Source: a virus. Taken from it: a DNA stretch of 64,000 bases. A program made the position numbers and the translations under genes. Numbering within the stretch: the first letter of the stretch is position 1; each line of letters starts with the position of its first letter. The DNA is taken from positions 2,487 to 66,486 of IMG/VR virus record IMGVR_UViG_3300036804_000088; one strand, written 5' to 3'. The notes under the pieces were generated by a model. The model saw only the letters and a list, made by a program, of their open reading frames with translations, searched no databases and was not told the origin of the DNA. Positions 7,766 to 41,318 of this stretch are shown piece by piece.

Positions 7766-7770
7766 CGAAC

Positions 7771-8879: not shown

Positions 8880-9228
8880 CATGGTCGTCAACGGTCGCAG
8901 CGAATTCCATTTCAATATAGAGGGTTGGCGTCAGATCGAACGGGAAGTGGTCATCAAGTGGAGCCGTCCTACCGCCGAGAAGATAGCCGCCAAATGCAAC
9001 GATGAGTCCGCTGCCGCAGAGCATCCCGGCACTTATCACGGCGAGCCGACCACCGACGCGGAGAAACGCGGCTACCGGGCAGGAACCCAGACTGAGGATC
9101 GTGTCGGCTGGCAACTGCATAAACGGTTCTACCGCGCCACCGTCGTCACAGCGACGGAACCGGCCATGGCCGACAATGCTCGTCATAACCGGCTGATCAA
9201 CAATCTGCACATCGCGGAATCCGAATGA
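8869..9228 (+). CDS. Neck-region virion protein
   Basis: RATVVTAT..AMADNARHNRL motif typical of this gene position in actinophages. Confidence 0.65.
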   Translation: MLCDMVVNGRSEFHFNIEGWRQIEREVVIKWSRPTAEKIAAKCNDESAAAEHPGTYHGEPTTDAEKRGYRAGTQTEDRVGWQLHKRFYRATVVTATEPAMADNARHNRLINNLHIAESE

Positions 9229-9650
9229 CGTTCCCAACACCGCAATTCGGGTACTACGACTATTCGGCGGTAGTGATTCGCGACTACCTGCTGACCAGGG
9301 TTCCATCGCAGTATGAGGTAACCACCCTGGTTCCCAACCCCCGACCGGCCCTACTGATCGTCGTTCGGACCGCGCCGACCAGCGGCGGGATGAATCCCGT
9401 ACTTTCCAAGCGTCGAAACATCATCTGGTGCTACGACCTGTCGGAAGTTCAGGCAGTCCAGACGGGTGAATACGTTCGCGGATATCTGTATGAGGCGATG
9501 TATCAGCCGGGCAGCGGAATTCGGGACACACGGATCGTTGGGGAGCCGTGCTATTTTCCCGATCCCGACGACCCGGCGAAAACTCCAAGAGCGCAGCTCA
9601 CGGTAGACGTTCTGTTACGCGCCAGGAAAGTTCAAAATCTTGGCTCTTGA
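9225..9650 (+). CDS. Tail terminator
   Basis: VPNPRP and FPDPD..RAQLT motifs; directly before the major tail gene. Confidence 0.75.
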   Translation: MTFPTPQFGYYDYSAVVIRDYLLTRVPSQYEVTTLVPNPRPALLIVVRTAPTSGGMNPVLSKRRNIIWCYDLSEVQAVQTGEYVRGYLYEAMYQPGSGIRDTRIVGEPCYFPDPDDPAKTPRAQLTVDVLLRARKVQNLGS

Positions 9651-9670
9651 TTACCTTGGAGGTAATTGAC

Positions 9671-10297
9671 ATGAGTTTCAACGAAAACAACATCTACAAC
9701 GCTGAACCGCTGGCAACCGGCGTGTGCTTCGTTTCCCCTATCGGAACCCCGCTGCCGGTCGACGCTCAGACCCTAATTACCACAGTCAGCCCATTGTGGG
9801 TGGATCTGGGGTACACCGGTGTCGACGGGTTCGTGGAAAAGAACGACCGCCGAATCGACCTGAAGCGGTCCTTCGGCGGCAAGGTCGTCAAGACACTTCA
9901 GACGGAATACAATGCGACACTTGACTTCACGTTCATGGAGTCGCTGAACGCCAACGTCTTGAAGGCTGTCTTCGGTTCGACCAACGTCGTCGTCACCCCG
10001 GCTACCAACCTGCACGGCAATCAGGTTCAGGTGTTCAAAAACAGCCGCAAGCTGCCTCACCAGTGCTGGTGCATCGACACCTACGATGACGCTCTCGGGT
10101 CCACGTCGATCATCAACCCGCTGAACGCCAAGTACCGCAACGTCGTTCCCAACGGGCAGATCATCACCGTCGCGGAGATCAAAGTAGTCCACACCGATGT
10201 TATCGAATACAAGGTGAGCCTGGAATGCTTCGAATCCCCCGCCGGGATGGACAACATCGTCACCTACACCGACGACGGTATGCACCTTGGGTCGTAA
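9671..10297 (+). CDS. Major tail (tube) protein
   Basis: Start moved to MSFNENN (GGAGG RBS). PIGTPLP, DLGY..DG, FGGKVV and VPNGQI motifs. Confidence 0.85.
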   Translation: MSFNENNIYNAEPLATGVCFVSPIGTPLPVDAQTLITTVSPLWVDLGYTGVDGFVEKNDRRIDLKRSFGGKVVKTLQTEYNATLDFTFMESLNANVLKAVFGSTNVVVTPATNLHGNQVQVFKNSRKLPHQCWCIDTYDDALGSTSIINPLNAKYRNVVPNGQIITVAEIKVVHTDVIEYKVSLECFESPAGMDNIVTYTDDGMHLGS

Positions 10298-10976: not shown

Positions 10977-11276
10977 ATGGCATTCGAATACAAGACGACC
11001 ACCGAAGAGGGCGCAGACGTCATTCTGCGGTTCAAGGCGTATGGGCTCGCGCCTGGCCGTATCTCGCGCCACAACATCGGCAACATGGAAGCCCAAGTTT
11101 GGGCTTACCTCGAATGGGGTTTGGTCGAACCGGCGAACTGGCCCGAAGGCGGCAAGCAGCCCGGCACTGACGTGTTCGACATCATCCCGCAAAACGAGAT
11201 CACCAAATGCTACGCGGAATGGCAGTCCAGCGACGACGACGAACCCGAGAAGCCGAAAGTAGTTCCCGGTAGCTGA
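10977..11276 (+). CDS. Tail assembly chaperone, G-like, standalone
   Basis: AGGAG RBS. VWAYLEWG...FDIIP..EI..Y.EWQ resembles mycobacteriophage G chaperones and the N-terminal half of the upstream gene. Confidence 0.65.
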   Translation: MAFEYKTTTEEGADVILRFKAYGLAPGRISRHNIGNMEAQVWAYLEWGLVEPANWPEGGKQPGTDVFDIIPQNEITKCYAEWQSSDDDEPEKPKVVPGS

Positions 11277-14200: not shown

Positions 14201-15142
14201 AGCGGCGGGACGGGTGGCGGCTTCGGCGGCGGGGTGGACAACTCAACCGGCGTCGACTATGGACCCGGCAGCGGGCGCGGGCGGCGCGGCGGGGGTGTCG
14301 ACCCGAAAAAGGAACGTGACCTTAACGAGAAAATCGACAAGCTACAGCACGAGATCGATGTGCTGGAACAAAAGAAATCCGAATTCACCGCCAAGACAAA
14401 AGAATCCGAGAAGCAGTCCGTCGAGAATGACCTGAACGAGCACAAGCAGAAACTCTCCGATGCTCAGGCCGATCTTCAGGCCATGCAGCAGCAGGGCGCG
14501 GGCGGCGGGATGGGCGGCAGCCCGTTCGGCACAGCCTACGGCGGCACAATGGGCATCCCCGGTGTCGGATTCCCCGATATGGGTCAACTGGGCGACATCG
14601 TCAGCAAGGGGCTGGTGGAATCATTCCTGCCGCCAGGGTTCACGAACCCGTTCGCTACCGACGCTATGCGTATCCCGTCCGTGCTGCTGAGCTTTTTCGG
14701 CGGTCTCGGCCAGAAATATGGCGGACCGCTCGGCGGCAACACTGGGGTTGCATTGACGATGGGTGGCGCTCTGCTGTCCGGCAAGGGCGGCAACATTGTG
14801 AAGGCGCTGGGCGGCTTCGCACAGCAACCCTACGGAAAGATTCAACCAGGTGCACCCAACTACGGGCAGGTACCCGATGATCCGCTGGGCGCTATCAACC
14901 TGCCCGGCAGCGGCGGCGCGGGCGGCGGAATACCGGGCGGGGATTTCCTGAAAAATGCGGGGAACCTGATGATGAACGGAACCGGCGGCGCACCCGGCAG
15001 CTACACCAACGACTTTCGCGGTTCCACCTTCGGCAACAAAGACGACGTCCAAAAAGTGGTCACCGATCACGGGCTGGCATATTCCCGCGCCAAGGGACCG
15101 GGCGCGAGTATCGACATTCACACGAGTCCTAGCGGGAACTGA
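11276..15142 (+). CDS. Tape measure protein with C-terminal NlpC/P60-like peptidase domain
   Basis: ELATGYI N-terminus; tape-measure domain; Trp repeats; WAEPSTGGEAYIPL motif; GIDCSGLVSA...GHTA catalytic motif. Confidence 0.9.
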   Translation: MTHPRGGDAHGAELATGYIALTVKYSNAMSKIAQDFGQLQREATVAGDRAGVALGSGIGRGARSGTNAARAELASLHSESHVWGDRIGKAIGYAIAQPIALPLRAVRGTMHELEDSAKKLGGALRSSLSIAEPIGKMAGAAATIGSIGFGLEKGFQHLEAVEEAEARMQALGLSGEQIEETMKRAGDAIRGTAYGIVDVVGAAEKLVTSGIKDEELTRTLTDVRNVASLTGGTIDSTTDLMLKFRSEWKEGGLELRKFAQEGLPQLSDWLQQFKHVGPEALADMFKKGQVTYDDILGAIEAHTGGVAERMSHTIGSQMHLLGVNIGNVFDQLINPSGKGGDAGGRALEHLNNELGKAGSFLQAHGQQIEGIYQNVGHALDNTWHAVTNVWHALENTWHAATNVWHAVTNFWHACENTWHAITNIWHAFENVWHAVSNVGHAVENILHALGIQTTYVDNVKKSWHELEDSVKRVWHGAEDFWHACESAWHMAENIAQAFGHIIEKLPGFSNFLKGLQHIKDFFTGGGGGGSPGGPNPNQPSTWPTWGGFPGSGGAGAYPPNPNQPSTWPTWAGFASGGFDVHKSSAHIQSAVAPSGLVNWAEPSTGGEAYIPLHPSKRSRSMEIWKQTGNILMGGRMFGAGGKSRPWKMDSGGILRMLANINSIDQPWHPGDSDLQNLVPDAHAPSSDWLPQFTKPGVGVPGGPGPGINTSGIQGAIPKWLWEIIMHGGAHGGHLKAPGWWVGSTWGADPDPGRTHGLVPAYDDGGIGNWWGMTPQQMWAGSGETGSGNLASVHSLLGTLTGGTGGKRAPYVMGGFSPSGIDCSGLVSAVVNTYLGSSPFSSRMSTPSEGSWLKQRGLVMGDGPPGTLRIGWYDNGGGEMGHTALTLPDGTNVESTTSHGISGVRVGALAAGASSSQFTNHAYLPLAGAFPGGMGGAGSNSLFGGYGGSGVGFGGAGGNRRSGFSAGFGGAGGGDFSGGTGGGFGGGVDNSTGVDYGPGSGRGRRGGGVDPKKERDLNEKIDKLQHEIDVLEQKKSEFTAKTKESEKQSVENDLNEHKQKLSDAQADLQAMQQQGAGGGMGGSPFGTAYGGTMGIPGVGFPDMGQLGDIVSKGLVESFLPPGFTNPFATDAMRIPSVLLSFFGGLGQKYGGPLGGNTGVALTMGGALLSGKGGNIVKALGGFAQQPYGKIQPGAPNYGQVPDDPLGAINLPGSGGAGGGIPGGDFLKNAGNLMMNGTGGAPGSYTNDFRGSTFGNKDDVQKVVTDHGLAYSRAKGPGASIDIHTSPSGN
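12395..12625 (+). repeat. 11 x 21-bp (7-aa, NxWHAxx) tandem repeat within the tape measure gene
   Basis: NVGHALD NTWHAVT NVWHALE NTWHAAT NVWHAVT NFWHACE NTWHAIT NIWHAFE NVWHAVS NVGHAVE NILHALG. Confidence 0.9.
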
Positions 15143-26449: not shown

Positions 26450-27037
26450 ATGATATGTACTGTCGAAGGATGTACTTCAGTCATCAAGTCGGGCAATCGA
26501 TTCTGCGAAAAGCATCGGGCGCGCTTTCGGCGGCACGGCAACCCTAATGTCGTTCTCAAAGATCACACCCCCGCAACCGAACGGTGGAAAACCTCCTATG
26601 AGGTTGATCCCGAAACCGGATGCTGGAACTGGACCGGACCATTCAGCCGCGGATACGGATTCATACAGGATGGTGCTCGAAAGCGTTACCAGGCACATAG
26701 ATTCGTCTATGAGCAGGTGGTTGGTCCGATACCGGACGGTAAAGAGATTGATCATGTGTGCCGAAATACCAAGTGTGTCAATCCAGATCCCGGCCACTGT
26801 GAACCTGTTACGCACGCTGTCAACGTCCAGCGAGGCAATGCCGGTATTGCAAACGCCCTTAAGACGCACTGCAAGCGCGGGCACGAATTTACACCTGAGA
26901 ACACATACGACAATCATGGCCATCGGGGTTGCCGTGAATGTCAACGCACACAGGTTCGGGAATACATGCGCGAGAAGCGCCGCCGCGAACGTATAATCAA
27001 GGCAAAACAATTCCTTGAACGAGAAGGTGAATTATAG
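26450..27037 (+). CDS. Free-standing HNH homing endonuclease
   Basis: CWNWTG..GYG, AHRFVYE, IDHVCRN..CVNP..H.EPVT..VN, KTHCKRGH; AT-richer than neighbours. Confidence 0.9.
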   Translation: MICTVEGCTSVIKSGNRFCEKHRARFRRHGNPNVVLKDHTPATERWKTSYEVDPETGCWNWTGPFSRGYGFIQDGARKRYQAHRFVYEQVVGPIPDGKEIDHVCRNTKCVNPDPGHCEPVTHAVNVQRGNAGIANALKTHCKRGHEFTPENTYDNHGHRGCRECQRTQVREYMREKRRRERIIKAKQFLEREGEL

Positions 27038-27708: not shown

Positions 27709-30700
27709 GTGGCGGTAACGCGGATCGGTTCCGGCGCTGGCGGCACCAGCACCGGCGCAGCTGTAACATTCAACGGCCCAACCATCTCCGCTTCTGACGC
27801 CACCACGGTAATGGTGGTTGGTGTTGTCCTGTCTGTCTCATCGAACGCTTCTGCTACGTGCTCGGTGACGTGTGGTGGCGTAGCGATGACACAGCTCAAT
27901 CTGACGCTGGCGGGTTCGTCTACCAGCCGCAGCGCGACCGGCCTGTATTACCTTTTCAACCCCGGCACCGGCACGAAAAGCATCGTCGTCACTCCTGGCG
28001 GCGCGACCATAGCGCAGGTGCGTTGTCAGGCTGTCGCGTTCACCGGTGTCGCCGCCACTGGTGTTGGCACAGCCCAAGTTTCGGCTGCGACGTCGCACTC
28101 TCCGACATCTGTTGTTGACGGCTACGATGTCCGCGTTCTGTGCAATGGTGCTGCTTTAACGTCACCGAACCAGACGCAGGAATATCTTGGCGGTGCATCA
28201 GTTTCCGGTATTGGCGACTACATGTGCATGCAGTCCGCTGTGGGGACTGGCAGCGCTATCAGCTTCACAGCGTCGGGGACTGCGACCACGCCGGAATCTG
28301 TTGCGGTCGCGCTGTCCCCGTTTATCGGCTATGTCCAAGGCAACTCCGCAACCCCGGCTAGTGGTTCCCCTGTCACCGTCGCATATACGGTGGCGCAGAC
28401 TGCGGGGAACCTGAACGTTGTCGCTGTCGGATGGAACGACAACACATCAACCATCAGCTCAGTCACCGACACAAAGGGCAACAGCTACCAGTTAGCTGTT
28501 CCAATCGCACGACAGGCAACGCCGGGTCCTTTAAGCCAAGCAATCTACTATGCGCCGAACATCGCCGCAGCCGCAGCGGGCGCTAACACGGTGACGGTCA
28601 CGTTCAGCACGTCGGTCAGCTTCCCTGATATACGAATCGCCGAGTACAGCGGTCTGGCAACTACGAGCCCGTTCGACCCAGCCGGTTCCGGCTCTGGTAC
28701 GGGTAACAGCGCTGCCCCTTCGGCTGGTCCGTTCACCACCACCGCAGCCAACGAGGTGCTTGTCGGCGCCGGGATGAACTCGAACATACTCTCGGCAGGG
28801 TCTGGCTATACCAGCCGGATTGTTACCGCTAACGACTTCGATCTGCTCGAGGACAAGGTAGTTACCTCTGCCGGTAGTAATACCTGCACTGCCGGTATAA
28901 GTGCTTCCGGCCCGTGGGTGCTGCAAGTCGCGGCGTTCAGCCACACGTCGATCAGCGTTAGCGCTAGTGCACCCCTTTCCGGCCACGGTGCACTGTCCGC
29001 CGCAGTTATAGCACAGTATGTTCGCACCGCCGCGCTGCCCGGTCATGGTGCGCTCACCGCGTCGGCGCGGCTGTCCGAAGAGGCCAGTCATGCAGCCCTG
29101 CCCGGCCATGGCGTCTTATCCGCCACAGTCATAGCGCAATACATCAGAGCCGCAGCACTATCCGGCCACGGCGTGCTCACCGCGTCGGCGCGGCTGTTCT
29201 CCATAAATGAGCCAGCGCCCCTTATCGGTCACGGTATACTGTTCGCCACAGCCATAGCGCAATACGTTCGCACCGCGGCCCTGTCCGGCCATGGTGCCCT
29301 GTCCGCCACCGCTGTGGCGCAGTACGTTCGCACCGCAGCATTATCCGGCCATGGTGTGCTCACAGCCACAGCGGTGAAAGCTGGCCAGACAGCAGCGCCA
29401 TTAACAGGTCGTGGCGTACTCACCGCAACAGCGCGACTGTTCGAAGAGGCCAGTGCTGCGGCACTACCGGGCCATGGTGCGCTATCCGCCACAGGCACGG
29501 CGCAATACGTCAGAGCCGCAGCACTTTCCGGCCACGGTGCGCTGAGTGCCATAGCCGTAGCGCAATATATAAGAGCCGCAGCACTACCCGGCCACGGTGC
29601 ACTCACCGCTTCGGCGCGGCTATCCGAAGAGGCCAGTCACGCAGCGTTACCCGGTCATGGTGCGCTGAGCGCCATAGCCGTAGCGCAGTATGTTCGACCG
29701 GCAGCGCTGTCCGGTCACGGTACAGCTTCGGCTACGGCACGCCTGTCCGAAGAGGCCAGTCACGCAGCACTGTCCGGTCACGGTGCGCTGAGCGCCATAG
29801 CCGTAGCGCAGTATGTCAGAGCCGCAGCACTAGCCGGTCACGGTGCGCTCACCGCGTCGGCGCGGCTATCCGAAGAGGCCAGTCACGCAGCACTGCCGGG
29901 TCATGGTGTCCTGTCCGCCACAGCCACATCGCAATATATTCGCGCGGCAGCGCTGTCCGGTCATGGTGCTCTATCTGCTATTGCTGTAGCCAGGTACCCC
30001 GCAGCGGCGGCGCTGTCCGGCCATGGTGCTCTCACAGCCATAGCGGCAAAAGCCGGCCAGTCAGTAGCACCGCTGCCCGGCCGCGGCGTACTCACCGCGT
30101 CGGCACGGCTGTTCTCCATCCACGAAACAGCCGCTCTGTCCGGTCTAGGTGTTCTATCCGCCACGACCACAGCACGATACGCCAGAGCCGCTGCATCGTC
30201 CGGTCATGGTGCCCTATCCGCCACGGGCATAGCGCAGTACGTTCGAACCGCAACACTATCCGGTCACGGTATAGTTTCGGCTGCGGCGCGGTTGTTTAAA
30301 GAGGCCAGTCCCGCAACGCTCCCAGGTCATGGCGTTGTGACCGCGACGGCCATCCCCCAATACAACCGCGCCGCAGCCTTGTCCGGTCACGGTGCCCTAT
30401 CCGCCACTGCTGTAGCCAGATATCCGGCGGCAGCAGCACTGCCCGGCCATGGCGCTCTTACCGCATCGGCGCGGCTGTTCTCCATCCACGACACCGCAGC
30501 CCTCGCCGGCCACGGCGCAGCGTCAGCCACCGGGGTAGCGCAATACACCAGAGCCGCAGCATTGTCCGGCCACGGTGTGATCAGCGCGACCAGCACACCG
30601 AGATACAACCGCACCGCAGCCCTGTCCGGTCATGGAGCACTATCGGCCACAGTTTCGCCCCACTACAAACTCGCCGCCAACCCCGCCGGTATCGGAACAC

Positions 30701-31011
30701 TGACAGGGCATGCTTTCCGGCGTGTATCTATAACCGCCGCGCTGCCCGGCCGCGGCAGCCTGAAAGCCAGCGGTGCGCTGCCTGCCACTGCAACACTGCC
30801 TGGCCGCGGTGTGCTGACGGCGGTTATCAGTGCGGTCAGGCCGACACCGCCGGAACGTATCGCCGTAGTGGCGGCTGAAAACCGAAGCGTCATAGCTACC
30901 AGTGAAGGCCGTATTCCTGCCGTCAGCGCCGACAATCGGACTACCACCGTAGCTTTCGATACACGAACAGTGACAACACAATTCGAAACAAGATTGGTGA
31001 CAGTAGTATGA
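27709..31011 (+). CDS. Long fibre/scaffold protein: two N-terminal beta domains, 31 GHG repeats, C-terminal 9-aa repeats
   Basis: 1100 aa; repeats counted from the translation. Confidence 0.7.
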   Translation: MAVTRIGSGAGGTSTGAAVTFNGPTISASDATTVMVVGVVLSVSSNASATCSVTCGGVAMTQLNLTLAGSSTSRSATGLYYLFNPGTGTKSIVVTPGGATIAQVRCQAVAFTGVAATGVGTAQVSAATSHSPTSVVDGYDVRVLCNGAALTSPNQTQEYLGGASVSGIGDYMCMQSAVGTGSAISFTASGTATTPESVAVALSPFIGYVQGNSATPASGSPVTVAYTVAQTAGNLNVVAVGWNDNTSTISSVTDTKGNSYQLAVPIARQATPGPLSQAIYYAPNIAAAAAGANTVTVTFSTSVSFPDIRIAEYSGLATTSPFDPAGSGSGTGNSAAPSAGPFTTTAANEVLVGAGMNSNILSAGSGYTSRIVTANDFDLLEDKVVTSAGSNTCTAGISASGPWVLQVAAFSHTSISVSASAPLSGHGALSAAVIAQYVRTAALPGHGALTASARLSEEASHAALPGHGVLSATVIAQYIRAAALSGHGVLTASARLFSINEPAPLIGHGILFATAIAQYVRTAALSGHGALSATAVAQYVRTAALSGHGVLTATAVKAGQTAAPLTGRGVLTATARLFEEASAAALPGHGALSATGTAQYVRAAALSGHGALSAIAVAQYIRAAALPGHGALTASARLSEEASHAALPGHGALSAIAVAQYVRPAALSGHGTASATARLSEEASHAALSGHGALSAIAVAQYVRAAALAGHGALTASARLSEEASHAALPGHGVLSATATSQYIRAAALSGHGALSAIAVARYPAAAALSGHGALTAIAAKAGQSVAPLPGRGVLTASARLFSIHETAALSGLGVLSATTTARYARAAASSGHGALSATGIAQYVRTATLSGHGIVSAAARLFKEASPATLPGHGVVTATAIPQYNRAAALSGHGALSATAVARYPAAAALPGHGALTASARLFSIHDTAALAGHGAASATGVAQYTRAAALSGHGVISATSTPRYNRTAALSGHGALSATVSPHYKLAANPAGIGTLTGHAFRRVSITAALPGRGSLKASGALPATATLPGRGVLTAVISAVRPTPPERIAVVAAENRSVIATSEGRIPAVSADNRTTTVAFDTRTVTTQFETRLVTVV
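28969..30840 (+). repeat. 31 x 20-21-aa coding tandem repeat AAL(S/P)GHG(A/V)L(S/T)A
   Basis: Visible as recurring ccggccatggtg / ccggtcacggtg units at 60-63 bp spacing. Confidence 0.9.
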
Positions 31012-31826
31012 AGCTAGGTCTTAAACCTGCTGTACCCGGCGCGGTCAAGCTGCGGCTGGGAACCTACCTGAACTGGCGCGAACTACCGCAACCGCCAACC
31101 CATTTCGGGCACGCCGACCTGGTGAAAAACTGGGGGATGATGGCCAACGGTGCCGCCGAAGACAACCCGCCAGGGCTGCCGGACGGCGCGGGCTGCTGCG
31201 CATTCGCCGGCCCCGTCCACCAAACCATGCTGTGGTGCGCCGAAGGTCAACGGCCCGCGCCGTTCTCCGCGGAATCGACACTGGAAAACTATTCCGCCGT
31301 CACCGGGTTCAGGATCATCGATCCGATCACCGGCGCACCGTACCCGCCTGACCAGAACCCCACCGACCAGGGGACCGCGCTGGACGACATGGCGAAATAC
31401 TGGCGCACCAACGGGCTGATCGACGACGACGGCAACGCTCACAAAATCCTCGCCTACGTCGACATGAACCCCGGCGATCTTCGCGAACTGTGGCTGGTGT
31501 CCTGGCTTTTCCAGTCCGCCTGCATGGGATACGAGCTGCCCGAAAGCGCGCTGGAACAAAGTCAAGCAGGCGTCGTGTGGGATGTGGTACCGGGTTCACC
31601 TATCGCTGGTGGGCATTGTGTTCCGACCATGGCCCGCCTGAGTGAAACATGGGGACTGGGTGTGTCGTGGGGTAAAAAGCAGCCGTTCACCGACCGATGG
31701 TTCACCACCTACAACACGCAGGGTATCGCTGCGCTGGACGAAGAGATGCTGATCAACGCGAGAAGCATTGATGGCATTGACGATGCGATGCTGCGGGACG
31801 ATTTGGAACAGGTGACAACGGCATGA
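31008..31826 (+). CDS. Papain-like cysteine peptidase-fold protein
   Basis: GCCAFAG (Cys), GGHCV (His) and SWG motif order; DQGT motif. Confidence 0.6.
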   Translation: MKLGLKPAVPGAVKLRLGTYLNWRELPQPPTHFGHADLVKNWGMMANGAAEDNPPGLPDGAGCCAFAGPVHQTMLWCAEGQRPAPFSAESTLENYSAVTGFRIIDPITGAPYPPDQNPTDQGTALDDMAKYWRTNGLIDDDGNAHKILAYVDMNPGDLRELWLVSWLFQSACMGYELPESALEQSQAGVVWDVVPGSPIAGGHCVPTMARLSETWGLGVSWGKKQPFTDRWFTTYNTQGIAALDEEMLINARSIDGIDDAMLRDDLEQVTTA

Positions 31827-33044: not shown

Positions 33045-34682
33045 ATGACCGTCACACTGGCCGACGTCAACTACATGTGGCAGCAGGTCATCATCCCCCG
33101 CGTCGGTGACGTCTACGTTTTCGGCGGCAGCCTCTCACCCACAGCGGTCAACCAGGGAACCGATTGCAGCGGCGCTGTCTCGGAAGTCAACGAAGCGCTG
33201 CTGTACGGGCCGCAGATGAATTGGCAACGCCAGTTCTGGACCGGAACGTTTGCGGGCGCGAACCCCGGTGACCATGGCCCGTTCGGCGGCGTCCCCAGCA
33301 CCGCTGACTGGGTGTGTATCGCTGACCCACGCAACCCGCCGGCCGGCGCGGTGATGACGGTGGCCGTGCTGCAAGATCCTGACCCTTCGCAGGCGCACAT
33401 GGTGTGCGCTGTGCAAGATCCCGACAATGTGACCGGCTTCGGCGGACCCGGCGTCTACGTCGGCATCGAATCAGGCGGCAGCTTCACCGACGCCAACGGC
33501 AATTCGACGCTGCATATCGGGCCGGAAGCAACCGGTGTTGACGACCCTGAGTTCGACCAGTATTTCGCGCTGACTGACACCATTTCAGGTACGCCGACAC
33601 CGCCGCCGCTGACGCCATTGCAGGCCAACGCACTCAAGGTGATCGCGGCGGGCGAGGCGATGGGTATCACCCCGCTGGGGTGTCAGATGGCGCTGGCCTG
33701 TGTGTTGGACGAATCCAGCGGCCTGATGTACGCGAATTCGAATGTGCCTGAGTCGCTGAACTATCCGCATGACGCGGTTGGTAATAACGGGCAAAGCTGC
33801 GGACCTTTCCAGCAGCAGGCGCAGTTCGGCTGGGGGACCGTTGCGTGTGAGATGGACTGGACCTGTTCGTCCAACCTGTTTTTCACAGCGCTGGCGAAGC
33901 TGCCGTATAACAGCGGCGCGCAGCCGCCATGGATGTATATCCAGAACGTGCAGAATTCGGCCACGGCTGACGGCTCCAATTACGAGGCGCAGTGGAATGC
34001 CGCTGTAGCGCTTTACAATTCAGTTATCAACCTTCCATCCGAAGGATTTCTCATGGTACTAAACGACCAGCAACAGTCCGACGTCTACACCTGGCTAGGC
34101 GATATTCACGGCGGTCTGTTCAATGCGATTGGCAGCCAGTCGCCGTTCCGCGCGCTGGGCGAGGGCGAGATCTGGCAGCAGCACCAGCTACCGATCAATG
34201 ACGATGGGTTCCTGCATCCCCAGTATGTGGAATGGGCCGCGTCGGCGGGTGATCCGGTCAGTCTCGCGGTGTTGCAGTCGGTAGCTAACGGTGACGTCAC
34301 TCAATACCCTGACCGGATTGAGGATATCCGGCTGGCGCAGGCGGTGTTGGCCCGTATCACCAGCGGTCCCACACCGACACCGACCCCGACTCCCTTACCC
34401 ACACCCACACCCACACCGACGCCGGCTCCGACACCCGTTCCGACGCCGACACCGGGTGGCGGGATCAACATCACCGGTGCCCAACTCGCTCAATGGGGCA
34501 AAAACCTGGTCACCGTGCTAGGTGGCATCGCCACCTGGGCAACTACTGCCCATGACATCCTGGGCCAGTATTTGAACGGCGCTAACGGCACGGTTGTCCC
34601 TGTGGCTATCGCGCTAGCCGACGCGGTGTTCACCACCCACACCATTCGAGAGCGCAACCGCGCTGTTAGATTTCCTGGTTAA
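33045..34682 (+). CDS. lysA: Lysin A: Cys-His peptidase domain, transglycosylase-like domain, PT linker, hydrophobic C-terminus
   Basis: YVFGG...GTDCSG...HMVC; ESS.LMYAN...PHDAVG....GPFQQ...WG; position upstream of lysin B. Confidence 0.8.
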   Translation: MTVTLADVNYMWQQVIIPRVGDVYVFGGSLSPTAVNQGTDCSGAVSEVNEALLYGPQMNWQRQFWTGTFAGANPGDHGPFGGVPSTADWVCIADPRNPPAGAVMTVAVLQDPDPSQAHMVCAVQDPDNVTGFGGPGVYVGIESGGSFTDANGNSTLHIGPEATGVDDPEFDQYFALTDTISGTPTPPPLTPLQANALKVIAAGEAMGITPLGCQMALACVLDESSGLMYANSNVPESLNYPHDAVGNNGQSCGPFQQQAQFGWGTVACEMDWTCSSNLFFTALAKLPYNSGAQPPWMYIQNVQNSATADGSNYEAQWNAAVALYNSVINLPSEGFLMVLNDQQQSDVYTWLGDIHGGLFNAIGSQSPFRALGEGEIWQQHQLPINDDGFLHPQYVEWAASAGDPVSLAVLQSVANGDVTQYPDRIEDIRLAQAVLARITSGPTPTPTPTPLPTPTPTPTPAPTPVPTPTPGGGINITGAQLAQWGKNLVTVLGGIATWATTAHDILGQYLNGANGTVVPVAIALADAVFTTHTIRERNRAVRFPG

Positions 34683-34714: not shown

Positions 34715-34906
34715 ATGACCGACCAACCATTAGAGGCCACCCTTCCCAACGTCGGTTCCATCCTCGCCGGGGTGCAAAAGGCACTTGCTGAAGGCATCTC
34801 GGTAGCGGAGATGGCCGAAAAAGTGCTGGCCTTCGTGTCGCCTACCGACGCGGCGGCGCTGGAAACACTGATCAAGGTGTTGCAGGAAGCGCAGAAACTC
34901 TTATGA
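34715..34906 (+). CDS. Small helical protein between lysin A and lysin B
   Basis: AAGGA RBS; ATGA overlap with lysin B. Confidence 0.6.
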   Translation: MTDQPLEATLPNVGSILAGVQKALAEGISVAEMAEKVLAFVSPTDAAALETLIKVLQEAQKLL

Positions 34907-35649
34907 CGCTCACGATATTCAGCATCAACGGCTTCGGCGGCAACATGTGGGCCGGGCCGCAAGCCGAAGTGGCGCAGTACCTTTCGAACCAGGGATTGAA
35001 CCTGGCATACTGGCAGCCCATCGGCTACAACAGCGGCGCATTCCCGCTGTCTATCGGTGTGAACAGCGGCCTGGCTGAACTGAAAAACCAGCGTGCCCAG
35101 CATCCCGGCCCCTACCTGATCTCCGCATGGTCGGAGGGTGCAATCATTTCGGAACTGTATCTGCAACAGGACAAGTCCGGCGACTGTAAAGGCGGCGTGA
35201 TGTACGGCAACCCGTACCGCGCCGCCGGCCAGTGGAACCCTATCGCACCAGCTCTGGGCGCGGTGCCCGATCCCGGTGGGGCTGGCATCGGTGGTCCGCG
35301 GAACAACTGGCGGACACCGGATTCCGTTCACCATTACTGCCACGGTCCGAATCAGCCGTCGTATGACGGCAAGCCGGGCGTCGACATGTATACCTGCTGC
35401 CCGACGAACGGTGTCGGCGTCGTCATTCGGATCATCTTCGATTTCGTGCTGACGCAGTGGACCGGTGAGATATTGGATCTGTGGCTGTTCGGCGAAGAGT
35501 TGATCACCAGCGGGGCGCACGCAGCACTCGACGTCACGCAGGCCATCATCATGGCTATCAGTTTCTACGGCGGTCAGACCAAACCACACGTCGATTACGA
35601 CTCCTACGCCGGGAAGACTTACCTCGCGAACCTCGCGAGATCGCTGTAA
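34903..35649 (+). CDS. lysB: Lysin B (cutinase-like alpha/beta hydrolase)
   Basis: WQPIGY, nucleophile elbow AWSEGA, YGNPYR, DMY and C-terminal PHVDY. Confidence 0.8.
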   Translation: MTLTIFSINGFGGNMWAGPQAEVAQYLSNQGLNLAYWQPIGYNSGAFPLSIGVNSGLAELKNQRAQHPGPYLISAWSEGAIISELYLQQDKSGDCKGGVMYGNPYRAAGQWNPIAPALGAVPDPGGAGIGGPRNNWRTPDSVHHYCHGPNQPSYDGKPGVDMYTCCPTNGVGVVIRIIFDFVLTQWTGEILDLWLFGEELITSGAHAALDVTQAIIMAISFYGGQTKPHVDYDSYAGKTYLANLARSL

Positions 35650-35694
35650 TAGCTTGGGCGTTCGCTATTAATAGGCAGGGGTAGTGGGTATGAG

Positions 35695-35871
35695 ATGTTC
35701 ACTCAAGACGAGCGTGCCGAAATTCGGATATTGTTCTACAACGAACTGGTCTGTATTCACAAGGCTATGCTGAAAGCCGGTTCGTATCATTACCTTTGCC
35801 TGGTAGACGGCAAAGTTGTCTATACTCATTCGCCGATTGGTAAAGTCATCTGGCATACGCCGTGGCTATAA
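35695..35871 (+). CDS. 58-aa hypothetical protein, AT-rich
   Basis: Translated by hand (MFTQDERAEIRILFYNELVC...); fills the gap. Confidence 0.45.
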   Translation: MFTQDERAEIRILFYNELVCIHKAMLKAGSYHYLCLVDGKVVYTHSPIGKVIWHTPWL

Positions 35872-36389
35872 TAGACTGGACGAACGTCGCGCCGGTTGTC
35901 GCCGCCGTTCTGGGGTTTGTCGGTATCGTCGTCGGAGCGCTGGCGGATCGCCGGGCGAAGGAACGCACCGCCAGCGCTCAAATCGCCGTCGCTAAGGCGC
36001 AAGAGGCCGCTGTGGCAGCGCAAGCGGCAGCGCAGCAGCTCGCGGCGAAAGCCGCCGATAAGGCTGCCGAAGCGGCGGCACAAACCGCGGAAGCCGAAAT
36101 GCGCAAAGCTGTTGCGGCGGAACGCGAAGCGCAAGCCAGACAGTGGGCGCAGATCACCGAAGGCATGCAGAAATGGAACATGAGTTTGCAGGACGATATC
36201 AAGGAAAACTCGCGCCGTATCGATGACGCCGAACTACGGGCCGAAGCCGACAGGGAACGCGCCGACCGTAACGAGCGGTTGTACTCGCGAGCAATCATCT
36301 ACTTGCGCAAGCTGATCCGCTGGATAGACGACGTCGTACCGGGTGAAGAGTATCCGACGATCCCGCCTGAGCTGAAGGTAGATCTGTGA
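35862..36389 (+). CDS. Membrane-anchored coiled-coil protein (lysis accessory-like)
   Basis: N-terminal TM, long coiled coil and C-terminal AIIYLR.L..W...P.IPPEL, typical after actinophage lysins. Confidence 0.7.
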   Translation: MAIIDWTNVAPVVAAVLGFVGIVVGALADRRAKERTASAQIAVAKAQEAAVAAQAAAQQLAAKAADKAAEAAAQTAEAEMRKAVAAEREAQARQWAQITEGMQKWNMSLQDDIKENSRRIDDAELRAEADRERADRNERLYSRAIIYLRKLIRWIDDVVPGEEYPTIPPELKVDL

Positions 36390-36487
36390 GTTTGCTTGGC
36401 GCGGTCGCGCTTTGGTTGACGATAATCGTTGTGGTGGTACCGATATTCGCCTATGTGGCGCACCGCCGATGACGAGTTGACCTAGAA

Positions 36488-37549
36488 ATGGCAGGGTTTG
36501 CGGCGCTGCCACCTGAGATCAATTCGGCGCTGATCGAGACCGGCCCCGGCCCGGCCCCGCTGATCGCAGCCGGCGTGGCGTGGCGCAGTCTGGCCGCAGA
36601 ACACCACGCGGCAGCGGCGCAATGGAGTTCGATCATTGCGTCGATACCGTGGCAGGGTTCGGCGGCGCAGGCTATGCGGGCCAACGCTGCGGCGCAGGCA
36701 GCGTGGATGCAGCAGGCTGCCATGCACGCTGAGTTGTCGGCAACGCAGGCGCAGCTCGGGGTGTCGGCGTTCGAAGCGGCGCGCGCGGCTATGGTGCCGC
36801 TGGCCGCGGTGACCGCCAACCGGGCGCAGCTCGCGATGCTGATAGCCACCAACCTGTTGGGGCAGAACACCGCGGCTATCGCTGCGACCGAAGCCCAGTA
36901 CGGAGAGATGTGGGCGCAGGACGTGACCACCATGGCCGGGTATCAGGTGGCGTCGGCTGCTGTGACCGCGGCGCTTCCGGCCCCGCCCGCCCCGCCACCG
37001 TCGCCGCTGCCCGGCGGGATCATCGGGTTTCTGAACGGGCAGGGTGTCGGCGGGATACAAGGGCTGGGGCTGCTGATCGAAGAGTATGGCACATCGATTG
37101 TGTCCAGTTCCCCGGTGTCGACGCTGCTGGCGCTGCTGGCGATAGCGCAGGATCAGCAGCAGACGCAGCAGCAGTCGTCCGGCAGTCCGTCCGATGAGCG
37201 CCGCGCGGAGCCGTTCGCGGGCAGGGGCATGCCGATTATCAGCCCGGCCGGCTTCGCTGCGTCCGCGGGGATGGGTGACGCGCCGCAACTCGGGCGTCGG
37301 GTCAGCGTGCCCGCCAGTTGGACACAGGCCGCGGGGAAGCCGCCAGCGGCGGTGCCGGTCGAGTTGGCCGCGTCGGTGTCACCGCTGGCCGGCGAAGGGG
37401 TGGGGTTGCCGGTGCTGCCGTTCATGCCGGTAGCCGGGACGTCATCGCGCGCGCCGGACACCAGGAAAGAGAAGCCGAAGCCCGCGGGGTGTGAGGCGCC
37501 GCTGGTGGCGTTGCGCCCGCCGGTGGGCGGCTACAATTCGTCACTGTGA
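36488..37549 (+). CDS. PPE: PPE family protein, SVP subgroup
   Basis: FAALPPEINSA, WQG (WxG), ANRAQL..L.ATN.LGQNT.AIAATEAQYGEMWAQDV..M.GY, and LGRRVSVPASW. Confidence 0.95.
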   Translation: MAGFAALPPEINSALIETGPGPAPLIAAGVAWRSLAAEHHAAAAQWSSIIASIPWQGSAAQAMRANAAAQAAWMQQAAMHAELSATQAQLGVSAFEAARAAMVPLAAVTANRAQLAMLIATNLLGQNTAAIAATEAQYGEMWAQDVTTMAGYQVASAAVTAALPAPPAPPPSPLPGGIIGFLNGQGVGGIQGLGLLIEEYGTSIVSSSPVSTLLALLAIAQDQQQTQQQSSGSPSDERRAEPFAGRGMPIISPAGFAASAGMGDAPQLGRRVSVPASWTQAAGKPPAAVPVELAASVSPLAGEGVGLPVLPFMPVAGTSSRAPDTRKEKPKPAGCEAPLVALRPPVGGYNSSL

Positions 37550-37572
37550 CGGTAGTCTCTTTTTTATTTACC

Positions 37573-37601
37573 TTGACATGTCCCCCCACTGGGCTTACAG
37601 T
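37573..37601 (+). promoter_or_regulatory. SigA-type promoter for a leaderless mRNA
   Basis: TTGACA-17 bp-TACAGT; ATG 6 nt downstream at 37608; T-rich tract upstream. Confidence 0.8.
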
Positions 37602-37607
37602 CTAGGT

Positions 37608-38051
37608 ATGAGCCAAGCAACCGAGCAGCACAAGGGTTTAACCGTCAACGTCTACCGCAACGCCCGATGGGCGCGCGAAGGTGCCGACTGCACCAATAAA
37701 GGCGCGTCCAGCCAGGTCGAAGAGTTCACAGTGGTGGGCGTCGTCCGACAGAAGCGCGGCAAGACAGTTGAACCGATGCCCCGCGGGTCGCAGGTGTTCA
37801 CACCCGATGAAAAGGCACCGGCTGCCGTGCTGGTGCAAAGCCAGCTTGACGGTGCCCCGCCGCACCTGGTGCCGCTGGACGTGCATGAGTCGGGCCGCTG
37901 GTCGATGGATGGCGGCAACCTGGTCGACAGCAGCGACTCACGCTGGACGGAGGTCGTGTCGAGTTTCCTGCCCGGCAGACTGCACGTGTCGGCGGTCAGC
38001 ATCCATGACCGTGTCGAGACCGCTGAGCAGTCACGCGCGCTGAGCATCTGA
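37608..38051 (+). CDS. Hypothetical phage protein (MSQATEQHKGL...)
   Basis: Start fixed by the leaderless promoter; DCTN.G.SS, M.GGN...SSDSR and IHDR.E motifs. Confidence 0.7.
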   Translation: MSQATEQHKGLTVNVYRNARWAREGADCTNKGASSQVEEFTVVGVVRQKRGKTVEPMPRGSQVFTPDEKAPAAVLVQSQLDGAPPHLVPLDVHESGRWSMDGGNLVDSSDSRWTEVVSSFLPGRLHVSAVSIHDRVETAEQSRALSI

Positions 38052-38233
38052 TGTCCACCCGACACCGGCATTTCCGCTGCGACGACGACCCATGGGATGC
38101 AGCCCAGCAGCGCGCCATCGGTGAAGGCACCACCATATCGGCCCTGCTCCGCGAATTCGTGGTGGCTTACGGTGCCGGGCGGGTCGCTCGCGACTGGACA
38201 ACCAGCAAGACGAAAAGGAAAGTGAAGCCATGA
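38051..38233 (+). CDS. Ribbon-helix-helix-like DNA-binding protein
   Basis: RHFRCDDD.WDAA..RA..EG.TIS.LLR pattern. Confidence 0.6.
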   Translation: MSTRHRHFRCDDDPWDAAQQRAIGEGTTISALLREFVVAYGAGRVARDWTTSKTKRKVKP

Positions 38234-38454
38234 TGACTGCACGGCAGAAATTCGTGCTCTGGTTCGTCGGCATCTGGCTGCTGTTTCTGGCAGCCATGGC
38301 GCTGATCGGGGCACCCGCCAGCCACGCCGACACACCTGAACCCCAGCCCGTTCCCGCACCGCACGTCACACTGCTGCCGCCCTGGTGCTTCCCCGACCCG
38401 ACAGTGTGCGGCTTCAAGTTCGACCCATCACACGGAGGGTGGTACCAGCCATGA
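38230..38454 (+). CDS. Small secreted or membrane protein
   Basis: Signal-peptide-like N-terminus ending ASHA-D; two Cys. Confidence 0.6.
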   Translation: MMTARQKFVLWFVGIWLLFLAAMALIGAPASHADTPEPQPVPAPHVTLLPPWCFPDPTVCGFKFDPSHGGWYQP

Positions 38455-38597
38455 CAACTGATCCGGCATCGGTAACCTGGCTAATCGAACCCACCGGCGA
38501 GACTGCTATCGGTGATGAGTTCGGCATGAAAACACTTGAGCAAGTAGAGATTTGGGTGTTTGGCGGATCTCTCGGAAAGTTTTGGAGAGAAGTATGA
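38451..38597 (+). CDS. Hypothetical protein
   Basis: ATGA overlaps at both ends. Confidence 0.5.
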   Translation: MTTDPASVTWLIEPTGETAIGDEFGMKTLEQVEIWVFGGSLGKFWREV

Positions 38598-39187
38598 GCG
38601 ACGTCGACACCCAATCGGCTGAGCCGGTCGTGGACTACCCGACGATGGCCGCGCAGCCCGCGCTGGCCTGGTCGGTCGCCGAAACGCAGCCGACACCAGC
38701 GCAGCGCCGCCCCATGTCGCATGCCTGGACCGGGCTGCTGGCCGCGGTGATGCTCTCGGCTATCGGCCTGGCATCCTATGTACTGGCTACCGGGCACGCG
38801 CCGCCGCTGCCGCGCCCGGCAGACCCCGCGCCGGCCACAACCACGCCGGACCGACCGTTAAAAACGGCTGACCGCGCACCGGTCACGGTGACCACCACCC
38901 CGCCCGCGGTGACGGTGACCGCAGCCCCGCCCGTCGCGCCCGCCGATAAGGATCAGCGCTACCTGAATATGGTTGCCGCCGACTGGAAACCCTACGACTG
39001 GCACATCGAAGATCCCGCCCTGGTCATCCACAACGCTCACACGGTGTGCGCGATGCTGGCCGACCCTAGCCACCCCACCCGCTCGCAGGTGGCGCACGCT
39101 ATCAACTCGCCTGACAACCCGCCGTTCGGTGTAATTTCGGTGTTGGTGGCGGATGCTAATGCGGTGTACTGCCCGCAACTGGGCTGA
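38594..39187 (+). CDS. Membrane protein with C-terminal DUF732-like domain
   Basis: LAWS motif, TM helix, Pro/Thr linker, DQRYL...AHTVC...A.AVYCP. Confidence 0.7.
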   Translation: MSDVDTQSAEPVVDYPTMAAQPALAWSVAETQPTPAQRRPMSHAWTGLLAAVMLSAIGLASYVLATGHAPPLPRPADPAPATTTPDRPLKTADRAPVTVTTTPPAVTVTAAPPVAPADKDQRYLNMVAADWKPYDWHIEDPALVIHNAHTVCAMLADPSHPTRSQVAHAINSPDNPPFGVISVLVADANAVYCPQLG

Positions 39188-40223: not shown

Positions 40224-41318
40224 TCGGTAGATCAGCAGGCGGTTCCGGCGGCTTCGCTGACCAGCCGGATTTCCGCCGACGACACCGCCGTGTACCGCTG
40301 CGTCGTCGCCACCGACGTATGACCTAACGCCTCTTGCACCGCCCGCAGATTGTGTGTCCCGGCGTAGCCGCGGGTGGCGAACCGGTGCCGCAGCTTGTGC
40401 ATGGACCACCCCGGCGGCATCACCTTGGACACCAGATGCCCGACCCGGTCGGGGCTCATGTGCCCGTCGATCTTGCCGGGGAACAGGAACCCGCCGCGCG
40501 GGCAGCCCACCACGATGGCATTGGCCAGTGACATGGTGATCGGCACCACCCGCTGTTTGGACCCTTTGCCATGCACGATCAGCGCCGCCCCGTCGCTGCC
40601 GTTGACCAGATCGTCGGTGTGCACGCCGGCCACTTCCGCGCGGCGCAGACCGGCCTCACACGCTAGGCGTGCCATCAACACGGTGCGCGGGTCGGCTACC
40701 GCCAGCAGCTCGCGCCAGATAGCGTCGGTGGCCGGCTTGGGCGCACCGGTGGCCGCGCGCACCGGCGGCAGCTTCACGGTCGGATCGATCATCACGATGC
40801 CCGTCACCGTGACGAACCGGTAGAACGATGCCAGGCTGGCCCGCACCCCGCGGCGGTGCTCTACGGACATCTGGGGGCGTCCCAGTATGGCCAGCAGGTC
40901 ATCGGCGGTGACGTCGCCGGGCTCCGCTATGCCCAGCTCGCGCGCGACAGCGCGGACATGGGAGCGCCGGGTGCGCCGGGTGGCCGCGGACGTTCCGGCG
41001 GCAACCAGCCATGTCAGCCAGGCGTCAATCGCGGTGTCCCATCCTCCCGGTAGTGTGTAAGACAGTGTGTGAATCCCCGATGAACTATTGCCCATAGTCA
41101 CGGTTCGCATATTTACTCCGACGTCAGGGGCAGCGCGAGTTTCTGTGAAGACAACGCGCGTTGTCACAGGTTCACGTTCAGTAATGCACCCGAAGATGCA
41201 GGATTGCATCCGCGCATGCGGCGTTGCCGTTGCCGGTTTCTGTGAACAATCACAGTGATCTACATCTGTCCAATAGCCTGTGGATAATGCGCGCTGCGCA
41301 AACCTCTAATCAGTAGAT
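40216..41318. repeat. 17-bp direct repeat ACCTCTAATC(G/A)GTAGAT flanking the integrase (40216-40232 and 41302-41318)
   Basis: 16 of 17 positions identical, read directly from the sequence. Confidence 0.75.
40232..41110 (-). CDS. int: Tyrosine integrase (short, XerC-like, no N-terminal arm-binding domain)
   Basis: GLRRAEV, GKGSKQR, HKLRH, LGH and TQRY catalytic set. Start chosen at MRTVT with GGAG RBS. Confidence 0.92.
   Translation of the reverse strand: MRTVTMGNSSSGIHTLSYTLPGGWDTAIDAWLTWLVAAGTSAATRRTRRSHVRAVARELGIAEPGDVTADDLLAILGRPQMSVEHRRGVRASLASFYRFVTVTGIVMIDPTVKLPPVRAATGAPKPATDAIWRELLAVADPRTVLMARLACEAGLRRAEVAGVHTDDLVNGSDGAALIVHGKGSKQRVVPITMSLANAIVVGCPRGGFLFPGKIDGHMSPDRVGHLVSKVMPPGWSMHKLRHRFATRGYAGTHNLRAVQEALGHTSVATTQRYTAVSSAEIRLVSEAAGTAC

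Follow-up and report, generated by a model that had tools for sequence, protein, structure and literature searches.

A divergent PPE gene at the edge of the lysis module of an uncultured soil phage and its relatives in mycobacterial prophages

We analysed a 64,000-nucleotide stretch of viral DNA (hereafter ‘the window’), which corresponds to bases 2487–66486 of the linear, 66,486-base IMG/VR record IMGVR_UViG_3300036804_000088 (CheckV completeness 83%) and which carries, behind its lysis genes, a gene encoding a PPE protein (36488–37549, + strand). Sequence comparison places this gene, as a new and divergent member, in a class of phage and prophage PPE genes that has drawn little notice, and it appears to belong to a PPE lineage that lives mainly in mycobacterial phages and prophages. 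As to its role, we lean towards the view that the gene is an accessory cargo gene (a ‘moron’) of the late/lysis operon, the product of which would be exported via the type VII secretion machinery of the host to modify the cell envelope.

The PPE gene and its protein

The open reading frame (ORF) at 36488–37549 starts with ATG and encodes 353 amino acids, with a PPE helical domain (residues 1–170) followed by a low-confidence C-terminal half that contains the SVP-like sequence GRRVSVPASW. An earlier interpretation of this DNA, made from its letters without database searches (below, the sequence-only reading), had proposed a full PPE domain at exactly these coordinates, and this is borne out: the Pfam PPE profile PF00823 matches residues 4–163 over profile positions 2–164 of 165 (E = 1.4e-52, 178.5 bits versus a cut-off of 26), too strongly for a chance match, and the motifs PPEINS (residues 8–13), WQG (W55-Q-G57) and YGEMWAQD (138–145) are all found. 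The columns of these three motifs are invariant or nearly so in two alignments of 15 (A1) and 45 (A2) sequences, with P8-P9-E10 and W55-Q-G57 invariant in both. On the 45-row alignment, AlphaFold2 predicts helices at residues 9–18, 23–51, 58–101, 105–120 and 128–161, with mean pLDDT values in 10-residue blocks of 90–97 over residues 11–170 and of 83 for the first ten residues; the modelled N-terminal domain has the five-helix fold of solved PPE domains, the comparison with the PDB being made by sequence. Among solved structures, PPE15 (5xfs_B, E = 1.9e-32), PPE41 and PPE4 (range to E = 8.6e-24) come nearest in sequence; we take their PDB entries to be PE–PPE(–EspG) complexes, 5xfs presumably being the PE8–PPE15–EspG5 complex. 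In solved PPEs it is the N-terminal domain that bears the PE- and EspG-binding surfaces.

Beyond residue 170 the AlphaFold2 model has low pLDDT and is mostly unstructured, and the tail of the protein is variable and probably disordered. Its assignment to the PPE-SVP subfamily, the signature motif of which is GxxSVPxxW, is approximate. The protein reads LGRRVSVPASW, with SVPxxW present and the G one residue farther away than in the signature, and MAFFT places a one-residue insertion in the motif. PF12484 (PPE-SVP) yields no match at E ≤ 0.01 with the whole protein and 21.9 bits, under the gathering cut-off of 23, with residues 165–353 alone; nor does an NCBIfam scan of the protein match a PPE-SVP model. 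A language-model look-up with ESM Atlas features, on the other side, takes residues 171–353 to PPE-SVP clusters (score 0.96, 171 features in common). The SVP signature described in the sequence-only reading holds up in its SVPxxW core and in this cluster assignment, and falls short in the extra residue and the PF12484 score, and the protein is best called SVP-like. An NCBIfam match to EspB_fam is meaningless (13.3 bits versus 450). The protein has a PPxGG-like C-terminal end; Pfam and NCBIfam scans find no toxin domain in it, and it contains no transmembrane segment and no amphipathic lytic feature. Like chromosomal PPE-SVP proteins (PF00823 plus PF12484), it combines a PPE domain, the PPE/WxG/YxEMWAQD motifs, an SVP-like motif and a PPxGG-like end, usually with no PE gene adjacent. 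Unlike them, it is carried by a phage, is shorter (353 as against mostly 380–480 amino acids), remains under the PF12484 cut-off and is parted by a tree branch (support 96/93, see below) from 77 of the 78 chromosomal copies sampled.

Relatives, lineage and residence in phages

Relatives of the PPE protein (36–61% identity) are encoded at 17 loci in IMG/VR (loci carry L numbers throughout), and L101 and L102, added later, bring the number of other contigs to 19. The gene is therefore not unique, and MAV_0790, the PPE gene of the M. avium prophage phiMAV_1, is already in print. Phage genes, recognised by tblastn with the window proteins and through PHROGs and Pfam, surround nearly all of the IMG/VR loci. 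In one arrangement, the PPE gene comes after the lysis genes (the window, L002/L003, L005, L017 and L101, with L006 and L007 having it between the lysis genes and the integrase gene); the order in L017 is lysin A, lysin B, holin, phrog_3413, VIT1-like, PPE, a hairpin, DUF732-like and integrase. In the other arrangement, it lies between a minor-tail gene and the phrog_19005 gene, upstream of the lysis genes (L010–L013, L015, L019 and L020). At L016 the PPE gene is found among tail genes. The L006 record is classed in IMG/VR as having direct terminal repeats.

A full PPE ORF of 337–410 amino acids is present at 16 of the 17 viral loci. At L020 (7998–8885), an M. avium-type provirus, PPE residues 1–114 are fused to a PLD-like domain (PF13091), a recombinant or disrupted allele. 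Among the 33 IMG/VR loci with a phrog_19005 alignment, a PPE gene lies within 10 kb on either side in 13 and is missing from 20; the nearest phrog_19005 relative, L099 (54% identity), carries lysins A and B but no PPE gene. The gene is thus frequent but optional among relatives of the phage, which is the optional presence expected of a moron. Comparison of insertion borders with PPE-less relatives fails: these are too divergent, L099 being similar at the protein level only.

Exact-sequence look-up names the hosts of the provirus copies as M. avium (including subsp. hominissuis and strain 104), the M. avium complex (MAC), M. botniense, M. europaeum (L015), M. malmoense (L017) and M. branderi (L004). 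All are slow growers, and the ESX-5-positive, slow-growing host that the sequence-only reading had suggested fits every one of them. Within the M. avium prophage PPE cluster, one sequence bears the label M. tuberculosis variant bovis; its 59,761-base contig may be a mixed or mislabelled assembly. Another mobile home for lone PPE genes is provided by small plasmids of M. avium and M. intracellulare (about 24–28 kb; H32–H36), each with a PPE gene whose product has 48% identity to the N-terminal domain of the window protein.

No PPE match was obtained among 50,697 GenBank phage records, whether by blastn of the gene, megablast of the segment 30000–45000 or tblastn of the protein. As a tblastn positive control on plasmids detected PPE genes in 48 records, the GenBank blank is real at that sensitivity and not a filter artefact. 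A fold search of the predicted viral structures in BFVD gave no match at E ≤ 0.001. The search of phage and prophage collections for PPE domains beside lysis genes that the sequence-only reading had proposed thus has two outcomes, with none in the GenBank phages and relatives in 19 IMG/VR contigs, many of them at lysis-module borders. We also ran tblastn of the phrog_3413 protein against GenBank phages, which found no match, possibly owing to the low-complexity filter, and from which we conclude nothing.

In print, MAV_0790 (753228–754160) appears as a PPE gene in prophage region SR-14 of M. avium 104 (Uchiya et al. 2013, PMC3749206, Table 3) and as a PPE gene of phiMAV_1, which spans MAV_0779–0841 (Fan et al. 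2014, PMC3986857, section 7). DNA of phiMAV_1 is described in PMC8155028 as enriched in the extracellular DNA of strain 104, and phiMAV_1 is on this account probably an active prophage. The M. avium 104 protein ABK69252.1 has 310 amino acids, the length listed for MAV_0790, and falls into the same 90% cluster as the L010–L013 proteins. In our literature searches we found no analysis of a phage-borne PPE beyond the listing of MAV_0790. The window resembles phiMAV_1 in having a lone PPE gene in a siphovirus-type genome, adjoining the lysis module and with no PE gene alongside, and the MAV_0790-cluster proteins of L010–L013 belong to the same 25-row tree group as the window PPE. Unlike in the window, the L010 gene, the product of which is 44% identical over query residues 4–219 (tblastn), is located before the lysis module, in the interval between the tail gene and phrog_19005, and the window phage, unlike phiMAV_1, is an uncultured soil phage with a portal protein at most 52% identical to that of any GenBank phage.

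Close relatives of the protein are lacking: of 4,653 database hits, the best (P0007 and P0004, the L005 protein) share 61% identity with it across the N-terminal 46%, and over the full length identity is about 40%. When one genome per species was searched across 185,579 species and the best 78 loci were taken, PPE-domain identity did not exceed 56% at these loci, and the window's 22 phage proteins find a match at one of the 78, an integrase in L071. A maximum-likelihood tree (IQ-TREE, LG+C20+F+G4) was built from residues 1–185 of 107 PPEs, of which 17 came from phage contigs (the window and 16 loci, leaving out the duplicates L003, L008 and L009), 78 were those of the genome loci and 12 were picked from 120 listed database hits by rank or full-length coverage. 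A branch with ultrafast bootstrap support of 96 and an SH-aLRT value of 93 separates 25 rows, comprising 14 of the 17 phage-contig sequences, 10 of the 12 metagenome database proteins and one of the 78 genome sequences. Within this group, the window PPE falls into a seven-row subgroup (98/85) together with L005, P0003, P0004, P0007, P0010 and L049. The ‘captured host gene’ of the sequence-only reading, if taken to mean a recent capture, is unlikely given this phage-associated grouping and the 56% identity of the nearest PPE domain among the 78 best chromosomal loci.

An independent check on 79 further metagenome loci is in line with the tree: the best hit is of the chromosomal type in 78 and of the phage type in L176 alone; L176 is also the only one of the 79 to adjoin an integrase gene with a product 82% identical to that of the window, and two of the 79 match a 46-protein phage panel. 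On this 6-kb contig (1703–2698 and 5761–6045) the PPE is only 37% identical to that of the window despite the closeness of the integrase, which indicates that close phages carry very different PPE alleles, apparently exchanged among them.

With 70.5% G+C, a GC3 of 0.82 and a GC skew of +0.06 to +0.14, the PPE gene is G-richer than its surroundings (60.1% G+C for the window), just as the sequence-only reading had noticed. Other genes of the window phage also reach GC3 values of 0.79–0.82, so the PPE gene is no gross outlier. Across the relatives, the GC3 of the PPE gene is 0.49 in L005 (50% G+C), 0.67 in L016 (62.5%), 0.69 in L006 (60%) and 0.80–0.86 in M. avium-type proviruses (66–67%), i.e. 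it follows the G+C content of each carrier phage. L005, from an IMG/VR record 59,217 bases long, has a lysin B gene as well as a PPE that shares 61% identity with the window N-terminal domain; its 50% G+C is unusually low for a phage of a mycolic-acid host, and a convergent helix-turn-helix (HTH) gene follows its PPE gene.

We estimated dN/dS by the Nei–Gojobori method for nine pairs of PPE genes, treating the N-terminal 170 codons and the C-terminal half separately; saturation affects the whole gene and the N-terminal part in two of the nine pairs and extends to the C-terminal half in one of the two, and dS above 1 makes most of the values rough. N-terminal dN/dS is 0.20–0.32 in six of the seven pairs with a value; the remaining pair, L010/L011, which is the closest (whole-gene dS 0.32), has 0.49, and C-terminal dN/dS is 0.36–0.81 in the eight pairs with a value. 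These ratios suggest that the phage PPE genes are under purifying selection. Taken together with the tracking of GC3, they speak for long residence in phages and against decay, and with 16 of the 17 viral ORFs at full length and dN/dS below 1 the picture of a decaying gene, which would have counted against the sequence-only reading, is unlikely.

Gene neighbourhood and transcription signals

The genes of the window are laid out in virion order, with terminase, portal, protease, capsid, tail tube, tape measure (11276–15142) and minor tail genes up to about 31011. Matches to the portal protein come from M. abscessus prophages and from the M. smegmatis phages Hades, Minnie, Sandalphon and PopTart, which we take to be cluster F phages. 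An HNH endonuclease gene (26450–27037, +) lies among the tail genes; after it come a Gp77-like adaptor gene and a 1,100-amino-acid ORF (27709–31011, +) without a family match, and G+C dips here to 53–60%.

The lysis cassette begins with lysin A, an endolysin (33045–34682, +; phrog_317, 5.9e-29, phrog_700 and phrog_6707), followed by a lysin B of the mycolyl-arabinogalactan esterase type (34903–35649, +; phrog_102 endolysin, E = 1.5e-34), which marks a mycolata host. Just upstream of lysin A is the phrog_19005 gene (31008–31826, +). Members of this family, which has no Pfam match, always stand just upstream of the lysis genes (L002 1935–2717, L010 9092–9838), and their invariant Cys (GDCAF) and His (GGH) motifs suggest an unannotated cysteine peptidase. 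The last recognisable gene of the cassette encodes a phrog_1397/phrog_3413 protein of 175 amino acids (35862–36389, +), with a single N-terminal hydrophobic segment and then a long Ala/Glu-rich helical part; its relatives come after holin or lysin B in L002, L017, L010–L013 and L020. By analogy, it may resemble the holin-like LysF1b with its single transmembrane domain (PMC13056207). A strongly hydrophobic mini-ORF of 28 codons with a GTG start (36386–36472, +; translation (M)SLLGAVALWLTIIVVVVPIFAYVAHRR) overlaps the phrog_3413 stop codon and ends 15 nt ahead of the PPE start, and may encode a small membrane peptide of the lysis cassette.

The first gene after the PPE gene is a phrog_6045 gene (37608–38051, +; E = 4.4e-38), apparently part of a separate transcription unit. 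Next come an Arc-like gene, a small ORF, a DUF732 gene (38552–39187, +; PF05305, E = 4.2e-07), an RHH gene and, at the centre of the map, a leftward tyrosine integrase gene (40232–41209, − strand; PF00589, E = 1.1e-21, phrog_1), with a product 69% identical to that of L006, 64% to that of L020 and 82% over 95 amino acids to that of L176. Genes for ParB-like, exonuclease, primase/polymerase and glycosyltransferase proteins are found to the right of the integrase. The sequence-only reading's placement of the PPE gene between phage genes is therefore correct, with lysin A, lysin B and phrog_3413 on one side and phrog_6045, the Arc-like gene and the integrase on the other, and the mid-map place of the integrase in a virion-ordered genome argues against a prophage excised together with flanking host DNA. 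The ‘intact attP’ of the same reading could not be confirmed: no tRNA was found, the segment 35000–43000 has no tRNA-like Rfam match, and no attachment core was identified. Searching for a conserved phage-encoded partner, we found no neighbour that consistently co-occurs with PPE, phrog_3413 and phrog_6045 each being present in some PPE loci only. DUF732 genes, common in these phages, are near the PPE gene in the window, in L017 (an M. malmoense provirus; 9339–10034) and in L049 (11072–11554, directly after PPE), which may be chance.

The PPE gene shares its strand with the structural and lysis genes, and the promoter-like site of the region is located after and not before it. This site, TTGACA-17-TACAGT (37573–37601, +; 10 of 12 consensus matches), is the only one in 35500–38300, where 0.5 are expected from shuffled sequences, and only 6 nt separate it from the ATG with which the phrog_6045 gene begins, which suggests a leaderless transcript and a separate unit of phrog_6045, the Arc-like gene, the small ORF and the DUF732 gene. 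A terminator-like site (37538–37566, +), with a weak hairpin over the PPE stop codon and then a T-rich run, may be the end of the rightward late transcript. In L010, L011 and L015, the PPE gene starts 5 nt after the upstream stop codon, and in L019 the stop codon of the upstream frame overlaps the PPE start codon; read by eye, these four loci also have a GTG with a Shine-Dalgarno-like stretch about 2–15 nt past the PPE stop. In L017, a hairpin of −45 kcal/mol lies 3′ of the PPE gene. The tight operon spacing in M. avium-type prophages and the lack of an upstream promoter in the window suggest that expression is at least partly late, and for this reason we do not simply call PPE a lysogenic-conversion gene.

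Possible functions and known counterparts

PPE proteins are exported as PE–PPE heterodimers, with the EspG chaperone on the tip of the PPE, by an ESX system, and ESX-5 and the expansion of PPE genes are confined to slow growers. The PE partner, with its YxxxD/E signal, is usually encoded directly upstream. A six-frame HMM search of the whole 66,486-base record detected neither a PE (PF00934) nor a WXG100 gene (PF06013) at E ≤ 1, in agreement with the sequence-only reading. What that reading made of the gene's ‘orphan’ status is another matter. Scanning up to 800 nt upstream of PPE genes with a profile built from the L018 PE and 23 first-round hits, we found a PE-like ORF in 25 of the 78 chromosomal relatives, in one of the 16 other phage loci and not in the window; the 53 chromosomal relatives without one show that a missing neighbour is nothing special, and with an adjacent PE usually absent among relatives, the partner is expected in trans. 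At the level of whole records, PF00934 finds a PE in one of the 16 other PPE-bearing viral records, L018. There (7692–9227 of a 143,610-base record), a PE of 99 amino acids (48.5 bits) and a PPE of 410 amino acids form a pair between phage genes (phrog_6045, polynucleotide kinase and lysin B), with the phrog_6045 relative 1.6 kb upstream.

If PPE is cargo, the gene at the distal end of the rightward late/lysis operon would be transcribed with that operon. Its product, presumably not exportable alone, would pair with a host PE and be carried by a host EspG, both of which must come from the host because the phage encodes neither, and the PE–PPE pair would then pass through a type VII (ESX) system of the host, in slow growers probably ESX-5, to reach the cell envelope. 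There, the variable C-terminal half might alter the surface or mycomembrane of the infected or lysogenic cell, with exclusion of other phages, changed permeability or changed host interactions as possible outcomes. The restriction of ESX-5 to slow growers would explain why PPE genes occur in phages and prophages of M. avium-type hosts, as well as why they are absent from GenBank phages, the nearest of which infect M. smegmatis and M. abscessus.

Optional envelope genes of this kind have a classic counterpart in lom and bor of phage lambda, which are outer-membrane-protein morons in or beside the late genes, with documented expression in lysogens. As cargo, the PPE gene would be analogous to them in being an optional envelope-protein gene of deviant base composition at the tail/lysis border of a temperate siphovirus, although the proteins are unrelated and use other export routes. 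A second counterpart are the phage-encoded ESX-secreted toxins (PEST) that a large survey of Mycobacterium prophages (Abad et al. 2023, PMC10654092) describes in M. abscessus. They are likewise prophage cargo predicted to use host type VII secretion, and according to the survey the PEST1/2 secretion domains fold like a PE/PPE heterodimer. PEST consist of three genes (a WXG100 effector, a polymorphic toxin and immunity), located beside integration functions in fast-growing hosts of the M. abscessus–chelonae group. The window, with a bona fide PF00823 PPE next to phrog_3413 and phrog_6045, differs in having no WXG100, toxin domain or immunity gene and is not a PEST locus; passages of the PMC10654092 text and six of its supplementary files mention no phage PPE gene.

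Several observations weigh against the cargo reading and the phage lineage behind it. The nearest tree row to the window (94/86) is L049, a chromosomal PPE from a metagenome-assembled genome (MAG) with no phage neighbours (it is surrounded by genes for a P-type ATPase, a deacetylase, DUF732, a permease and ribosomal protein S14), and transfer between phage and chromosome could thus have gone either way. Three phage-contig PPEs, L004, L014 and L018, group with chromosomal types, and with 12 of 120 listed database hits and the best 78 genome loci in the tree, its sampling is biased. The hairpin at 37538–37566 folds no better than shuffled sequences (z −1.46) and is a weak terminator. No promoter-like site precedes the PPE gene in 35500–38300, such that lysogenic expression, usual for conversion genes, is unsupported, and no RNA run is among the public holders of the window stretch. 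Finally, the G+C content of the window phage, 60%, is below that typical of slow-growing mycobacteria; M. avium has 69% (PMC3749206, Table 1). As for L014 (9901–11280, −), an EspB-like gene (EspB_PE plus EspB_PPE) lies there beside a canonical PPE-SVP at the provirus edge, and its PPE region is probably host flank included in the provirus call.

A bolder form of the cargo reading, which we regard as rather unlikely, is that phages of slow growers keep a PPE lineage of their own as a late-operon tool, with host PE, EspG and ESX-5 carrying the PPE to the mycomembrane to open it at egress or to shut out rivals, and with this conflict driving the fast evolution of the C-terminal half. If true, this would give the PPE family its first member with a defined function on the phage side and would offer a simple genetic handle on PPE C-terminal regions.

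That the protein instead serves lysis itself, a late PPE acting on the mycomembrane by forming or perturbing channels and so aiding breakage or its timing, as a functional analogue of outer-membrane-disrupting lysis proteins, is in our view unlikely. The location of phage-context PPE genes at or near the border of an extended lysis module (phrog_19005, lysin A, lysin B, holin and phrog_3413) is in its favour, as are the shared strand, the 5-nt gaps in M. avium-type prophages and the lack of a promoter of its own. However, a gene absent within 10 kb from 20 of 33 related loci is optional, type VII export with host partners seems slow and indirect for lysis, the protein has neither a membrane-spanning nor an amphipathic lytic feature and its C-terminal half is predicted to be disordered, and the borders of lysis modules are also classic cargo sites in temperate phages.

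Less likely still is a decoy, i.e. a lone PPE that sequesters host PE or EspG and thereby damps ESX-5 secretion of the host during infection. Such a role is compatible with the lack of a PE in the window record and in 15 of the 16 other PPE-bearing viral records, and with the stronger constraint on the PE- and EspG-binding N-terminal domain (dN/dS of 0.20–0.32 in all of seven pairs but the closest, which has 0.49, as against 0.36–0.81 C-terminally). Yet an adjacent PE is normally absent from chromosomal relatives too (53 of 78), the L018 phage has its own PE, and most phage copies keep a weak SVP-like tail that a pure decoy would not need: PF12484 is detected at E ≤ 0.01 in seven of the 13 phage-locus PPEs scanned, six of them above 23 bits, or five without L014.

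We give little credence to a neutral passenger, a host PPE gene gained by illegitimate recombination and heading for decay. While the difference in G+C between the gene and the phage (70.5% versus 60.1%) and the truncated L020 relative with its PLD-like fusion could be read in this way, 16 of 17 viral loci have a full-length ORF and dN/dS is below 1, GC3 has drifted to the phage level in L005, L006 and L016, and no chromosomal PPE domain among the best 78 loci of the 185,579 species genomes exceeds 56% identity.

Least of all do we credit an artefact, that is, a bacterial PPE gene joined to phage DNA by the assembler or through host contamination. The record is a metagenome assembly, and the sole public run with the window stretch is DNA from a soil metagenome that is probably the source of the record; in the Logan assembly of this run, a 4,010-base contig covers 33000–36149 and a 27,880-base contig spans 36122–41500 and beyond, meeting at a 32-nt node of higher depth (36120–36151) inside the phrog_3413 gene. 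Nevertheless, a chimeric join with host DNA, which would have undone the sequence-only reading, is very unlikely: the break lies 340 nt upstream of PPE, the ORF across the node is unbroken and matches its L002 homologue along the whole alignment, the PPE gene, phrog_6045, the integrase and the right arm are together on the one independent 27.9-kb contig, and the gene order recurs in independent contigs and isolate proviruses.

Beyond the one-line mentions in print, our analysis adds a phage-associated PPE group, its two positions at the borders of the lysis module and its phage-like base composition, together with the absence of the class from deposited phage genomes and its presence in M. avium-type prophages. 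From this it would seem that the PE/PPE export route of the host is exploited by phages of slow growers. For annotation, a PPE gene in a predicted prophage of these species is no sign of host flank. The PPE proteins of the mycobacterial envelope form a large family of which little is understood, and most are encoded in multi-copy chromosomal families that resist dissection. A lone PPE gene that is optional and borne by a phage is a natural gain-and-loss experiment, in which strains with and without the prophage, or with the gene removed, differ by one PPE.

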